A model generated the notes under the pieces. The model ran no database searches, was not told the origin of the DNA, and saw only the letters and a list, made by a program, of their open reading frames with translations. The position numbers and the translations under genes are program-made. 64,000 bases of DNA, from NCBI RefSeq assembly GCF_024223415.1, contig NZ_CP100500.1. One strand, written 5' to 3'. This DNA comes from Escherichia coli (GTDB taxonomy: Bacteria; Pseudomonadota; Gammaproteobacteria; Enterobacterales; Enterobacteriaceae). Below are positions 4,001-45,722 of the stretch, in pieces; the first letter of the stretch is position 1, and each line of letters starts with the position of its first letter.

Positions 4001-4192
4001 GCTTGCACCTGGGTAAAGCGTGACTACCTGAATGGTCGGATAGTCCACTTCCGGCAGCGCCGAAACGGGCAGGGCGCGATAACCGATAATCCCGGCGAGT
4101 AAGATCGCCACCATCAGCAGCGTGGTGGCGACAGGACGCATAATAAACAGGCGAGACGGGCCGCCTGTGCTGCTCGGGGGTAACACCTGCAT
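1070..4192 (-). CDS. mdtB: RND multidrug efflux transporter MdtB
   Basis: 1040-aa [30 protein letters not shown]... with RND permease architecture; length matches MdtB. Confidence 0.95.
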
Positions 4193-5439
4193 CAGGAGCG
4201 TGCTCCTTTTTTCGCGTATTCGCGGCTGGTGGCTTTCTCTTCTGGAGTGGTGGCGCTCTGGGCTTCCACCACTTCCACTTTCGCCCCTTCGGTCAGGCGA
4301 TCAATGCCGTCTGTCACCACGCGATCGCCCGCAGAAATACCTGCACGGATCACCACTTTCTGACTGTCCTGAATGCCCGGCGTCACCAGATGTTTGCTGA
4401 CCTTGTTTTCACTATTCAGCACCCAGACAAAATGGCCTTCATTGCCCATTTGCAGGGCGGCTGATGGGATCACTACGGCGTTTTGTTCGGTGTCGACTAA
4501 CATGCGCGCGTTAACAAACTGATTGGGAAACAGCGCATCATCCTGATTATTAAAGCGTGCTTTCACTTTAATCGTACCGGTTGTGGCATCGATTTGGTTA
4601 TCGAGACTTAACAGCGTGCCTTCACTTAATTTCTTCGAGTTGGTGCGATCCCAGGCTTCTACCACCAGCGGTTTTCCGGCTTTCTGCGCCTGCACTACGG
4701 TAGCGATATCGCTTTCCGGCAGGGTAAAGACTAAATCGATAGGATGCGTCTGGGTGATCACCACGATCCCGGTGGTATCACCACTGGAGATTTGGTTACC
4801 AACATCAACCTGCTTGAGACCAACGCGACCATCGACTGGTGCGGTAATCCGGCTCCAGTCGAGTTGCAGCTGCGCGCTGGCAACGCTTGCTTCATCAGCC
4901 TTAATGGTGCCTTCGGTTTCACTGACCAGCGCCTGTTGGGCATCCAGCTCCTGGCGGGAAACGAGATTGGTTTTTGCCAGTTGTTGATAACGCGCCAGGT
5001 CACGGCGGGCGTTGGCAAGCGTGGCTTTATCTTTTGCCAGTTGGCCCTGGGCTTGTGCTAATGCAACTTTGAACTGGCTGGGGTCAATTTCTGCCAGTAA
5101 ATCGCCTGCTTTGACCTGCTGGCCTTCCTGGAAATGTAACGCTATCAGTTGGCCGTCCACGCGGCTGCGCACCGTAACGGTATTAGCGGCGGTAATGGTG
5201 CCAAGCCCGGTGAGGTAACGCGGAACTGCCTGTTCTACGGCGGTCGCCGCCTGAACCGGGGCTAATGGGCCGGAACGCATACCACGGCGACCACCCGCTG
5301 GCGATTGCTGCGCTTGTTTCGTCGCCCCTGGGGCTGCACTCCGGGAGTCATTGCGGCCTTGCCAGAACCAGAATGCGGCGATGGCGGCGATAACCACCAC
5401 GATTACGATTACCCAACGGGATTTATAACTGCCTTTCAT
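4192..5439 (-). CDS. mdtA: Efflux membrane fusion protein MdtA
   Basis: ORF track 4192..5586; start trimmed to the ATG giving [16 protein letters not shown]... (415 aa), HlyD-like periplasmic adaptor; stop overlaps the mdtB start. Confidence 0.9.
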
Positions 5440-5689
5440 CGTTAAGAGTTTCTCTTCCTGAAACGTTTCGCGGAATGATACTAGTGTAGCCAGCCAATAA
5501 GGGAGAAAAATGGAGGAATTATGAAACACTATCGGGAATCGTCTGAATGGCGGGCACATTTGCGAGCACGCATCCAGTAATAACACAGGAAACTATTTTA
5601 TCTACGCGTTAGCGATAGACTGCATACAGGGCGAAAGGAGGTAAGCCGCAGATTTCAGCCGGATGCTGAAACGGGAAAGCCCCTCCCGA

Positions 5690-5835
5690 GGAAGGGGCCT
5701 TAAATAAGGAAAGGGTCATGATGAAGCTACTCATCATCGTGGTGCTCTTAGTGATTAGCTACCCAGCATACTAAGACTACCAGGGCGGGGGAAACCCCGC
5801 TCTACCCTCACTCCTGAAAGTATGCCTTCACGATA
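5690..5835 (-). ncRNA. sib: Sib antisense sRNA (antitoxin) of ibs copy 1; boundaries approximate
   Basis: Established architecture of ibs/sib loci: a ~140-nt antisense RNA spans the toxin ORF. Ends not determinable from sequence alone. Confidence 0.4.
5718..5774 (+). CDS. ibs: Ibs-family type I toxin peptide, copy 1 (MMKLLIIVVLLVISYPAY)
   Basis: 18-codon hydrophobic ORF with the MMK start typical of Ibs toxins; preceded by aggaaagg SD-like sequence. Confidence 0.75.
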   Translation: MMKLLIIVVLLVISYPAY

Positions 5836-6017
5836 AGATTGTCAATCCGCAGGATTTGCCGTCTGCGATCCTGCCAGCAAAAATTCTTTGCGAGACGTTA
5901 CGCAATAATCACACTGGAAACTATTTTATCTGCAAGTCAGCGATAGACTAAGTGCATGGCGAAAGGAGGTAAGCCGACGATTTCAGCGGGACGCTGAAAC
6001 GGGAAAGCCCCTCCCGA

Positions 6018-6163
6018 GGAAGGGGCCTTAAATAAGGAAAGGGTCATGATGAAGCTACTCATCATCGTGGTGCTCTTAGTCATAAGCTTCCCCGCTTACT
6101 AAGACTACCAGGGCGGGGGAAACCCCGCTCTACCCTCACTCCTGAAAGTATGCCTTCACGATA
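6018..6163 (-). ncRNA. sib: Sib antisense sRNA of ibs copy 2; boundaries approximate
   Basis: Same repeat unit as copy 1. Confidence 0.4.
6046..6102 (+). CDS. ibs: Ibs-family type I toxin peptide, copy 2 (MMKLLIIVVLLVISFPAY)
   Basis: 18-codon ORF; sequence as I recall IbsB. Confidence 0.8.
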   Translation: MMKLLIIVVLLVISFPAY

Positions 6164-6347
6164 AGATTGTCAATCCGCAGGCTTTGTAGTCTGCGATCCT
6201 GCCAGCAAATATTCTTTGCGAGTCGTTACGCAATAATCACAGAGGAAACTATTTTATTCACGCGTTAGCGATAGCCTGCATTCAGGGCGAAAGGAGGTAA
6301 GCCGATGATTTCAGCGGGACGCTGAAACGGGAAAGCCTCTCCCGGAG

Positions 6348-6495
6348 AAGAGGGCTTTTAATAAGGAAAGGGTTATGATGAAGCACGTCATCATACTGGT
6401 GATACTCTTAGTGATTAGCTTCCAGGCTTACTAAGAACACCAGGGGGAGGGGGAAACCTCTCCCTAACCCTCACTCCTGAAATTATGTCACTCCG
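6348..6495 (-). ncRNA. sib: Sib antisense sRNA of ibs copy 3; boundaries approximate
   Basis: Same repeat unit as copy 1. Confidence 0.4.
6375..6434 (+). CDS. ibs: Ibs-family type I toxin peptide, copy 3 (MMKHVIILVILLVISFQAY)
   Basis: 19-codon ORF, IbsA-like. Confidence 0.8.
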   Translation: MMKHVIILVILLVISFQAY

Positions 6496-6654
6496 CCCTT
6501 AGTGTCAATCGACGGCTCTCCGTTCTTGCGAGGCGAATAGCAAAATTTTCTGCGCCGCCGGGCCTAATTCTGAAAGTTTCTTCGTTTGCTCTTATTTCAT
6601 TATTGCAGTCGGTATGATACCGGACCTCAATAATTCTCTAAGAAAGGATTTCTT

Positions 6655-7314
6655 ATGAGCGAACAAATCACGTTTGCCACCAGCGATTTTGCCAGTAACC
6701 CGGAACCACGTTGCCCCTGCATTTTGCTGCTGGATGTTTCTAGCTCGATGAGCGGCAGACCCATTAATGAACTTAACGCCGGATTGGTTACCTTTCGCGA
6801 TGAGCTGCTTGCCGATTCGCTGGCCTTAAAAAGAGTGGAACTCGGTATTGTGACGTTCGGCCCGGTGCATGTGGAACAACCCTTTACCAGCGCCGCTAAC
6901 TTTTTCCCGCCCATCCTGTTTGCCCAGGGGGATACGCCAATGGGGGCCGCCATTACCAAAGCCCTGGATATGGTTGAAGAGAGGAAACGTGAGTACCGCG
7001 CAAATGGTATTTCGTATTATCGCCCGTGGATTTTCCTGATCACCGATGGCGCTCCAACCGATGAGTGGCAGGCTGCCGCCAACAAAGTGTTTCAGGGGGA
7101 AGAAGATAAGAAATTTGCCTTCTTTTCCATCGCTGTTCAGGGGGCGGATATGAAGACGCTGGCACAAATCAGCGTTCGTCAGCCTTTGCCTCTGCAAGGA
7201 TTACAATTCCGTGAACTGTTTAGCTGGTTATCCAGTTCGCTGCGTTCGGTTTCCCGCTCCACGCCGGGAACGGAAGTTGTGCTGGAAGCGCCAAAAGGCT
7301 GGACGTCAGTGTGA
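6655..7314 (+). CDS. yegL: von Willebrand factor A (vWA) domain protein YegL
   Basis: 219 aa; [15 protein letters not shown] is a vWA MIDAS-like DxSxS motif; first gene of the triad. Confidence 0.9.
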
Positions 7315-8072
7315 GCTGGCGTCTGGTTTATGCATCCGCTGTTGGAACGTCGCACATTAGCGCTGATTTACCTTGTCAGGATGCCTGCCAGATGCAGGTT
7401 GCCTGGTTAAACGATCAGCAACCATTACTGGTGATGTTTCTTGCTGATGGTGCAGGCAGCGTCTCGCAGGGTGGCGAAGGCGCGATGCTCGCCGTCAATG
7501 AAGCGATGGCTTATATGTCGCAAAAAGTGCAGGGTGGGGAATTGGGGCTTAATGATATCCTCGCCACGGATATTGTGCTGACTATTCGTCAGCGACTTTT
7601 TGCCGAGGCGGAAGCCAAAGAATTAGCAGTTCGCGATTTTGCCTGCACGTTTCTGGGATTGATTTCATCGGCTAATGGCACCTTGATTATGCAGATTGGC
7701 GATGGCGGCGTGGTGGTGGATTTTGGTCACGGTCTGCAATTGCCGCTTACGCCGATGGTGGGTGAATATGACAATATGACGCACTTCATTACCGATGAAG
7801 ATGCCGTTTCCAGACTGGAAACTTTCACCAGCACTGAGCGTGTGCATAAAGTTGCAGCATTTACGGATGGTATCCAGCGACTGGCGTTAAATATGCTGGA
7901 TAATTCTCCTCATGTACCTTTCTTTACCCCGTTTTTCAATGGACTGGCGTCAGCAACGCAGGAACAACTCGATTTATTACCTGAATTGTTAAAGCAGTTT
8001 TTGTCCAGCCCGGCGGTAAACGAGCGTACGGATGATGATAAAACGTTGGCACTGGCGCTGTGGTTACCATGA
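7311..8072 (+). CDS. pphC: PP2C-family Ser/Thr protein phosphatase PphC (YegK)
   Basis: 253 aa; GTG start overlaps the yegL stop (GTGA); PP2C-like features ([15 protein letters not shown]). Confidence 0.88.
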
Positions 8073-10009
8073 AACCCACTTTATATACTGCTACTGGTGA
8101 GTGCGTTACGCCAGGCCGTGAACTGGGCAAAGGCGGTGAAGGCGCGGTTTATGATATCAATGAGTTTGTCGATAGCGTCGCCAAGATTTATCACACGCCG
8201 CCACCCGCCTTAAAACAGGACAAACTTGCCTTTATGGCTGCGACAGCTGACGCGCAATTGTTGAATTATGTCGCCTGGCCGCAGGCAACGCTTCACGGTG
8301 GACGAGGCGGAAAAGTTATCGGTTTTATGATGCCAAAAGTTTCTGGTAAAGAACCGATTCATATGATCTATAGCCCGGCACATCGTCGTCAACGTTACCC
8401 TCATTGTGCGTGGGATTTTCTACTCTATGTTGCGCGCAATATTGCTTCATCTTTTGCTACGGTTCACGAGCACGGGCACGTCGTGGGTGACGTAAACCAG
8501 AACAGTTTTATGGTAGGTCGCGACAGCAAAGTGGTACTGATTGATAGCGACTCCTTTCAGATTAACGCCAATGGCACACTGCATTTATGCGAAGTCGGCG
8601 TGTCGCATTTTACGCCGCCAGAGCTACAAACCTTGTCGTCATTTGTCGGCTTTGAACGCACAGAAAATCACGATAATTTTGGCCTTGCGTTGCTGATTTT
8701 TCACGTCTTGTTTGGTGGCCGGCATCCTTATTCTGGTGTGCCGCTTATCTCTGATGCGGGTAATGCGCTGGAGACGGATATTACCCATTTCCGTTATGCC
8801 TACGCGTCAGATAATCAGCGACGTGGTTTAAAACCGCCGCCACGATCGATTCCGCTATCGATGTTACCGAGTGATGTTGAAGCCATGTTTCAGCAGGCAT
8901 TCACGGAAAGTGGCGTGGCAACCGGGCGTCCGACGGCTAAAGCGTGGGTAGCGGCACTTGATTCTCTGCGCCAACAGTTAAAGAAATGTCCCGTTTCGGC
9001 AATGCATGTTTATCCCGCTCATTTGACCGACTGCCCGTGGTGTGCGCTGGATAATCAAGGCGTTATCTATTTTATTGATCTCGGCGAAGAGGTCATTACC
9101 ACCGGCGGGGATTTTGTGCTGGCAAAAGTCTGGGCGATGGTGATGGCGTCAGTAGCACCGCCAGCATTGCAACTGCCATTACCCGATCATTTCCAACCGA
9201 CTGGCAGGCCGCTTCCTTTAGGCCTGTTACGGCGCGAATACATCATTCTGCTTGAGATCGCACTGTCAGCATTATCGCTGCTGCTTTGCGGCCTTCAGGC
9301 AGAACCGCGTTATATTATTTTGGTTCCTGTGCTGGCGGCTATCTGGATTATTGGCAGTCTGACAAGCAAAGCGTACAAAGCAGAAGTTCAGCAACGCCGT
9401 GAGGCATTTAATCGTGCGAAAATGGACTATGACCATTTAGTCCGCCAGATCCAGCAGGTAGGCGGCCTGGAAGGTTTTATCGCCAAACGGACGATGCTCG
9501 AAAAAATGAAGGACGAAATTCTCGGGTTACCGGAAGAAGAGAAACGCGCTCTGGCAGCACTTCATGACACTGCAAGGGAACGGCAGAAGCAGAAGTTTCT
9601 GGAGGGATTTTTTATTGATGTTGCCTCTATTCCCGGCGTTGGCCCTGCGCGTAAAGCGGCGTTACGGTCTTTTGGTATTGAAACAGCCGCAGATGTTACC
9701 CGTCGTGGCGTTAAGCAAGTGAAAGGGTTTGGCGACCATCTGACCCAGGCGGTTATCGACTGGAAAGCGAGCTGTGAACGCCGTTTTGTGTTCAGGCCGA
9801 ATGAAGCGATAACGCCAGCAGACAGACAAGCGGTAATGGCGAAAATGACCGCCAAACGACATCGGCTGGAATCGACGTTGACTGTCGGCGCGACAGAGTT
9901 GCAGCGATTCCGCCTTCATGCTCCAGCACGGACCATGCCGTTGATGGAACCTTTACGTCAGGCGGCAGAAAAACTGGCTCAGGCGCAGGCAGATTTAAGC
10001 CGCTGCTGA
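8069..10009 (+). CDS. yegI: Ser/Thr protein kinase-like membrane protein YegI
   Basis: ORF track starts at GTG 8060; the ATG at 8069 overlaps the pphC stop (ATGA). Kinase-like N-terminal region, hydrophobic segment near residues 390-430, C-terminal helix-hairpin-helix motif (IPGVGPARKAALRSFGI). Confidence 0.85.
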   Translation: MKPTLYTATGECVTPGRELGKGGEGAVYDINEFVDSVAKIYHTPPPALKQDKLAFMAATADAQLLNYVAWPQATLHGGRGGKVIGFMMPKVSGKEPIHMIYSPAHRRQRYPHCAWDFLLYVARNIASSFATVHEHGHVVGDVNQNSFMVGRDSKVVLIDSDSFQINANGTLHLCEVGVSHFTPPELQTLSSFVGFERTENHDNFGLALLIFHVLFGGRHPYSGVPLISDAGNALETDITHFRYAYASDNQRRGLKPPPRSIPLSMLPSDVEAMFQQAFTESGVATGRPTAKAWVAALDSLRQQLKKCPVSAMHVYPAHLTDCPWCALDNQGVIYFIDLGEEVITTGGDFVLAKVWAMVMASVAPPALQLPLPDHFQPTGRPLPLGLLRREYIILLEIALSALSLLLCGLQAEPRYIILVPVLAAIWIIGSLTSKAYKAEVQQRREAFNRAKMDYDHLVRQIQQVGGLEGFIAKRTMLEKMKDEILGLPEEEKRALAALHDTARERQKQKFLEGFFIDVASIPGVGPARKAALRSFGIETAADVTRRGVKQVKGFGDHLTQAVIDWKASCERRFVFRPNEAITPADRQAVMAKMTAKRHRLESTLTVGATELQRFRLHAPARTMPLMEPLRQAAEKLAQAQADLSRC

Positions 10010-21605: not shown

Positions 21606-21645
21606 CAGTGTATTGGTAGCTAAAAAGCCAGGGGCGGTAGCGTGT
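21606..21645 (+). promoter_or_regulatory. JUMPstart with ops element in the wza leader (RfaH-dependent antitermination)
   Basis: cagtgtattggtagctaaaaagccaggggcggtagcgtg contains the ops core GGCGGTAGCGTG. Confidence 0.8.
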
Positions 21646-35983: not shown

Positions 35984-36084
35984 CAGTTGAATAATCAACC
36001 GGATTAATTCTCCGGTAAATAACGACAAAAACAAAATTGGCCATTTCGGTCAGGGCCAACTATTGCCTGAAAAAGGGTAACGAT

Positions 36085-45683: not shown

Positions 45684-45722
45684 CAGTGTTCTGGTAGCTG
45701 TAAAGCCAGGGGCGGTAGCGTA
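45684..45722 (+). promoter_or_regulatory. JUMPstart with ops element in the O-antigen cluster leader
   Basis: cagtgttctggtagctgtaaagccaggggcggtagcgta; ops core GGCGGTAGCGT. Confidence 0.8.

Follow-up and report, generated by a model that had tools for sequence, protein, structure and literature searches.

A three-unit ibs/sib toxin-antisense RNA array between mdtA and yegL of Escherichia coli, probably a common copy-number allele

Introduction

Does a third unit in a type I toxin-antitoxin array, at a site where Escherichia coli K-12 has two, bring a new toxin with an antitoxin of its own, or is it an ordinary allele of a locus that differs in size among strains? The question is raised by the mdtA-yegL intergenic region in a stretch of 64,000 nucleotides of E. 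coli DNA (contig NZ_CP100500.1, assembly GCF_024223415.1; hereafter the window), where a model given only the letters and a list of open reading frames (the sequence-only reading) noticed a triplicated ibs/sib locus. The RNA family concerned, SIB_RNA in Rfam (RF00113), was formerly known as the QUAD repeats.

In K-12 the Ibs peptides act as toxins at the membrane, causing depolarisation and a drop in ATP (review PMC8309996), and according to a 2025 preprint IbsA of Salmonella is an inhibitor of the Fo sector of ATP synthase; an alanine scan of the Salmonella peptide found only residues 3 (Lys) and 11 (Leu) to be essential for activity (preprint 10.1101/2025.05.26.656083). Sib RNAs have two recognition domains that work independently in the repression of cognate ibs mRNAs (PMC2943612): TRD1 (SibC +46..+68), whose target is the ORF, and TRD2 (SibC +99..+115), whose target is the translation-initiation region and which is assisted by the P6 loop. 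In SibC either domain is enough for repression, so that both must be altered to abolish it, and altering 3 nt of TRD1 gives the TRD1-mediated route a new target; K-12 ibsA can be repressed by non-cognate Sibs (PMC2943612). The ibsC and ibsD mRNAs are ~160 nt long, and the TRDs coincide with the most variable regions of the five K-12 paralogues (Han et al. 2010, PMC2943612). Duplication followed by lineage-specific change in copy number is a published theme for type I loci (PMC2887945).

Results

The locus and its limits. With Tandem Repeats Finder one array was detected, at 5578-6487 (period 328, 2.8 copies, 88% matches), and a repeat search recovered three-copy families spaced by 328 and 328-335 nt. 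Every unit starts with the motif TTGCGAG (at 5560, 5888 and 6216, with a partial copy at 6526), and by this motif we set the array limits at 5559/5560 to ~6545; the sequence-only reading had located the array at 5581-6560, a span slightly narrower than the motif allows. The intergenic region, with ORFs for MdtA and YegL on either side, is orthologous in position to that of K-12 sibA/sibB. The sequence-only reading gave K-12 two copies at this position, and the yegL-mdtA interval of MG1655 indeed holds two units, sibA/ibsA and sibB/ibsB.

4192..5439, minus strand: mdtA, left flank; the K-12 start ATG is at 5439
5559..6545, no strand assigned: the whole tandem array, three ~328-bp units and the partial unit-initial TTGCGAG motif at 6526
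6655..7314, plus strand: yegL, right flank, coding for a vWA-domain protein

Units 1 and 2 are 92.4% identical and differ at 25 nucleotides, whereas either of them is 72-74% identical to unit 3, which differs from the others at ~90. In each unit an 18-19-codon hydrophobic ORF sits wholly within, and antisense to, its Sib RNA, and all three ORFs are preceded by the Shine-Dalgarno sequence AAGGAAAGGGT. The description of three direct repeats encoding such peptides was thus borne out by Tandem Repeats Finder, the repeat search and the ORFs, down to the peptide endings that had been quoted. The ends of the Sib RNAs below were placed by homology with the K-12 annotation.

5718-5774, plus strand: ibs ORF of unit 1, MMKLLIIVVLLVISYPAY, B-type, Tyr15 allele, the same as WP_001386901.1 in the identical locus of strain 181.1
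6046-6102, plus strand: ibs ORF of unit 2, MMKLLIIVVLLVISFPAY, identical to K-12 IbsB (WP_001386899.1)
6375-6434, plus strand: ibs ORF of unit 3, MMKHVIILVILLVISFQAY, identical to K-12 IbsA (WP_010723109.1)
5674..5809, minus strand: Sib RNA of unit 1, 136 nt, 6 differences from K-12 SibB
6002..6137, minus strand: Sib RNA of unit 2, 136 nt, 1 difference from K-12 SibB
6329..6472, minus strand: Sib RNA of unit 3, 144 nt, 0 differences from K-12 SibA
5817..5845, minus strand: Sib1 promoter, -35 TTGACA at 5845-5840, 17-nt spacer, -10 TACTTT at 5822-5817
6145..6173, minus strand: Sib2 promoter, TTGACA at 6173-6168, 17-nt spacer, TACTTT at 6150-6145
6480..6508, minus strand: Sib3 promoter, TTGACA at 6508-6503, 17-nt spacer, TAATTT

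All three RNAs match the Rfam SIB_RNA model over its full length (positions 1-147) at 141.6, 142.0 and 149.5 bits (gathering score 56). Their predicted folds are alike, with a closing stem, three internal hairpins and a terminator hairpin, and have z-scores of -3.9 to -4.5 relative to shuffled sequences. Units 1 and 2 have the same 40 nt upstream of the Sib +1, and over this stretch unit 2 agrees with the K-12 sibB unit. A generic consensus scan of the window for promoters and terminators did not call those of the Sib genes, whose -10 boxes (TACTTT/TAATTT) and short U-tracts score below its thresholds; identity with the experimentally defined K-12 genes indicates that promoter and terminator are intact in each unit. 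Lys3 and Leu11 are kept in all three peptides, and unit 1, with a promoter stretch identical to that of unit 2, a predicted fold like that of Sib2 and both of these residues, appears to be intact. Judged by sequence, every testable defining feature of the Ibs/Sib family is present in the array.

Several observations concern the surroundings of these genes. At 5905-5888 (minus strand) a copy of the unit-initial motif forms a terminator-like hairpin followed by a T-run, between Sib2 and the Sib1 promoter. Upstream of mdtA, the block AAAAATGGAGGAATTATGAAAC (~5507-5580, plus strand) is conserved out to Kluyvera; it has a strong Shine-Dalgarno sequence and an ATG that starts a 19-codon ORF (5521-5580). 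Because the length of this ORF varies across genera, the block looks like a DNA-level rather than a coding element, presumably the BaeR box of the mdtA promoter. Directly downstream of the array come three translationally coupled genes (6655-10009, plus strand), yegL (vWA domain), pphC (PP2C phosphatase) and yegI (protein kinase), in which stop and start codons overlap. Further along, Rfam matches to two JUMPstart elements (21606-21644 and 45684-45722, both plus strand; 57.3 and 56.6 bits) and to an algC RNA motif (36031-36080, plus strand; 73.2 bits) point to the colanic-acid and O-antigen gene clusters in the downstream part of the window.

Recognition domains. To map TRD1, TRD2 and P6, the window Sibs were aligned position by position with SibA-E; the rules for the TRDs come from SibC and SibD, and we infer that they apply to B-type units. 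Only five positions of the 136-nt Sib/ibs overlap distinguish unit 1 from unit 2, all within the TRD1-equivalent (5/23 positions):

5753..5768, no strand assigned: stretch of unit 1/2 differences in the TRD1-equivalent, with substitutions at 5753, 5756, 5761, 5765 and 5768

These substitutions fall in codons 12, 13, 15, 16 and 17, four of them being synonymous third-position changes and the remaining one F15Y. In contrast, a perfect identity of 79 nt (5674-5752 vs 6002-6080) takes in the terminator, TRD2, the start codon and the P6 loop. Thus, of the sequence features expected of insulated pairs, a differing TRD1-equivalent is found between units 1 and 2, and a difference in the TRD2-equivalent and P6 is absent between them; the latter is present between unit 3 and units 1/2, which differ at 40 positions including the TRD1-equivalent and whose longest common runs are 14-16 nt. 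Because the TRD2/P6 segment is identical and either TRD alone is enough in SibC, cross-repression between units 1 and 2 is probable, Sib1 acting on ibs2 and Sib2 on ibs1, and strict discrimination between them is unlikely. Unit 3 is probably largely separate from both in recognition, although its K-12 counterpart ibsA does respond to non-cognate Sibs (PMC2943612). That each antisense RNA would single out its own toxin mRNA, as had been proposed, is therefore plausible between unit 3 and the other two units and fails, in all likelihood, between units 1 and 2.

The Tyr15 peptide. The Phe-to-Tyr change had been taken to be unique to the first copy, which it is not: the exact 57-nt ORF of unit 1 occurs in 1,308/5,426 complete E. 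coli genomes, one-base variants of it occur in ~1,600 more, Tyr15 is found in 12/33 sampled B-type units, and Escherichia sp. E1V33 has two units, the first of which encodes exactly the unit-1 peptide. The Tyr15 peptide is neither unique nor new. Since Lys3 and Leu11, the sole essential residues of Salmonella IbsA, are retained, F15Y is unlikely to change toxicity, and its linkage to four synonymous changes is a pattern compatible with constraint at the RNA level.

Variation among B-type units. We compared 33 B-type units from 18 genomes, in which residue 15 is Phe, Tyr or Trp and residues 4-5 are LL, IL, WI or LI. Of the common polymorphic columns, 10/12 lie in codons 4-5 (the P6 loop) or in the TRD1-equivalent, together 29/136 nt (hypergeometric P ~2e-6, for units that were chosen for diversity and are phylogenetically non-independent, and with a codon 4-5 patch whose boundary was partly set after the data had been seen). 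Codons 6-11 are without variation, and codons 12-17 hold four synonymous polymorphic sites. This clustering is consistent with selection that acts on the pairing of the RNAs and not on the peptide, and would extend to the species level what Han et al. remarked for the K-12 paralogues.

Copy number among E. coli genomes. Of 5,426 complete E. coli genomes, 5,419 gave a match to a 1,320-bp query that covers the whole array. Over the 1,320 bp strain 181.1 (NZ_CP059907.1) is 100% identical, and RefSeq annotates all three toxin CDS there (WP_001386901.1, WP_001386899.1 and WP_010723109.1, the last as ibsA), under the label 'type I toxin-antitoxin system Ibs family toxin' or IbsA. We estimated copy number from 60 of 5,422 matching records, taken in even steps down the ranking, with 18 fetched loci as a check; the collection is redundant and clinically biased, which affects the following fractions.

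Three units: ~24/60 rows (~40%)
Two units: ~25/60 rows
Four units: ~7/60 rows
One unit, or an array disrupted by IS150: isolated cases among the 60 rows

The array is polymorphic in size across E. coli, with 1-4 units, and the two-unit form of K-12 and the three-unit form of the window are alleles. The description of the third copy as an expansion holds in that the window has one unit more than K-12; it does not hold as a novelty, given that ~40% of the sampled genomes have three units and that all three genes carry RefSeq annotation.

Recombinant arrays. The first ~50 nt of the K-12 B unit match first-position units and the remainder matches unit 2 of the window. Strain 2014-01-7375, with a Tyr15 unit followed by an A unit, resembles the window array minus unit 2, with a crossover near the 3' end of the unit. 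In the B2 strains 4/0, ATCC 25922 and SF-468 the array holds two B-type ORFs, of which the second is joined to an A-type 3' flank, and lacks ibsA. O55:H7 CB9615 has two units and the O157-like F3398 three, while strain 184/2aE (NZ_CP072858.1) has three identical ibs ORFs and ibsA. As read from these alignments, the mosaic units bear the marks of gene conversion and unequal homologous recombination between repeats of ~328 bp. A three-unit array could lose a unit, and could also arise by exchange between different two-unit arrays; we considered reading a polarity from the chimeric units and dropped it, as such units prove recombination without giving its direction, from three to two or the reverse. 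Two further lesions were seen in single strains, a 35-bp deletion in unit 2 of O19:H7 730V1 (NZ_CP061764.1) and an IS150 insertion after the first unit of strain 8600 (NZ_CM167998.1).

Other species. In a scan of one genome per species with a 20-nt pattern, Citrobacter, Salmonella diarizonae and Kluyvera had a single unit adjoining mdtA with 19-aa A-type peptides, Pseudocitrobacter had two units, one with the ...ISYPAY ending, and E. albertii, E. whittamii and Escherichia sp. MOD1-EC7003 had a single 18-aa B-type unit. The best blastn match of these other Escherichia species is unit 3, but an A-type assignment was rejected, their sequences being B-type 18-aa ORFs with an A-like 3' flank. Pattern matches in three MAGs labelled Hyphomicrobiales, Clostridia and Treponema were likewise set aside (no blastn similarity to Sib; about one chance match was expected). 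Hafnia psychrotolerans carries Sib-like units of 77-78% identity at two loci. With a single unit in Citrobacter, Salmonella and Kluyvera vs up to four in E. coli, the suggestion of expansion and diversification stands up on a deep timescale, and the locus has expanded from one unit on the timescale of genera. Every unit of the window opens with (T)TTGCGAG and a partial copy ends the array; in species with one unit (Salmonella diarizonae, C. sedlakii, E. albertii) the motif flanks that unit on both sides, and because of this placement it could have seeded the first tandem duplication.

Discussion

We conclude, with a probability that we put at roughly 0.9, that the array in the window is an Ibs/Sib toxin-antisense-RNA locus in its common three-unit form, a copy-number allele that arises through unequal recombination. 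Each unit would produce an 18-19-residue hydrophobic membrane peptide from one strand and a ~136-144-nt Sib RNA from the other, the latter from a constitutive-looking promoter and spanning the ibs start region and the whole ORF. As in K-12, the Sib RNA would pair through TRD1 with the ORF and through TRD2 and the P6 loop with the translation start, and pairing would block toxin synthesis and trigger decay of the ibs mRNA. Unequal homologous recombination between the ~328-bp units would yield arrays of 1-4 units as well as chimeric units. Under this scheme units 1 and 2 would be insulated through TRD1 only, and we infer that the TRD2/P6 route between them is open.

One could instead envision a recent, lineage-specific expansion, in which the third unit brought a unique and functionally diverged toxin C-terminus together with a private antitoxin. 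The window does stand one unit above K-12, units 1 and 2 differ in the equivalent of TRD1, a specificity determinant, and the locus has grown from the one unit seen in other genera. However, the exact unit-1 ORF is shared with 1,308/5,426 genomes, the same peptide is found in Escherichia sp. E1V33 and its ...ISYPAY ending in Pseudocitrobacter, and ~40% of the sampled genomes have three units. The 25 differences between units 1 and 2 argue that the duplication is not fresh, the identity of TRD2 and P6 in the two units argues that the antitoxin is not private, and the alanine scan of Salmonella IbsA, in which only residues 3 and 11 were essential, speaks against a functional role for the C-terminal change; we regard a recent expansion of this kind as very improbable. 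The third unit might also be an artefact of assembly, a mis-expanded tandem repeat, as short reads can lead to misassembly of tandem repeats ~330 bp long. The units are nevertheless distinguishable (25 and ~90 differences), and the same 1,320-bp structure recurs in many genomes that were finished independently (99.5-100% identity) and, at 95-98%, in other lineages, so that an artefact is excluded for practical purposes.

A further explanation concerns what maintains the variation rather than how the array came about: the codon 4-5/P6 and codon 12-17/TRD1 patches may be specificity cassettes under diversifying selection, which insulate co-resident pairs from one another. The concentration of 10/12 common polymorphic columns in 29/136 nt, the contrast between codons 6-11, without synonymous variation, and codons 12-17, with four synonymous sites, the finding that units differ at both patches in most multi-B arrays, and the location of the TRDs in the most variable regions of the K-12 paralogues (Han et al., PMC2943612) all point in this direction. 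Against it, strain 184/2aE carries three identical ibs ORFs, the units of isolate 68 have the TRD1 patch in common, and units 1 and 2 of the window have the same P6/TRD2 patch; moreover, the sampling of units is not independent, the limits of the codon 4-5 patch were drawn partly post hoc, and conservation elsewhere could leave only the loops free, which would be relaxed constraint and not positive selection. We therefore hold diversifying selection on the patches to be possible, at chances of about one in three. Its fuller form, in which the array is a population-level set of interchangeable specificity cassettes and units 1 and 2 are a half-switched intermediate on the way to a new antitoxin specificity, we consider somewhat more doubtful. 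If the cassette reading is true, Phe, Tyr and Trp at residue 15 are by-products of selection on RNA pairing and not on toxin function, and unequal recombination shuffles units and patches among strains.

Taken as a locus, the copy-number allele adds nothing new, and the finding is real but ordinary: the exact three-gene arrangement has already been described and annotated, and the family and its mechanism are already known. Strain-to-strain Sib copy numbers are reportedly tabulated already in Fozo et al. 2008, in a 2008 MMBR review and in Fozo 2012. Strains with three units are nonetheless a natural experiment, in that two of their Sib/ibs pairs differ in only one of the two published recognition domains, and they make it possible to ask with native sequences whether one common TRD is enough for cross-protection. 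Arrays of 1-4 units, chimeras and variation confined to patches could inform how the specificity of antisense RNAs diverges after duplication.

The closest known systems are sibA/ibsA and sibB/ibsB of K-12, which are like the window array in locus, flanks, promoter, terminator and fold; unit 3 is identical to SibA/IbsA, and unit 2 differs from sibB/ibsB by 1 nt, with an identical IbsB peptide. Relative to K-12, the window has an additional B-type unit beside mdtA, which is 6 nt from SibB, five of these in the TRD1-equivalent, and carries F15Y. From the three-unit RefSeq array of strain 181.1 (NZ_CP059907.1) there is no difference at all, the Sib RNAs being unannotated in such records. SibC/ibsC and SibD/ibsD (PMC2943612) have the same RNA architecture as the Sibs of the window. 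The K-12 paralogues differ in both TRDs and are mutually insulated, except for ibsA, whereas units 1 and 2 of the window differ at TRD1 only. The ldr/rdl and zorO/orzO-zorP/orzP loci (Fozo et al. 2010, PMC2887945) are also arranged in tandem within one intergenic region and vary in copy number among strains; however, they belong to other toxin and antitoxin families, in which the antitoxins overlap the 5' UTR or are divergent, whereas Sib overlaps the whole ORF.
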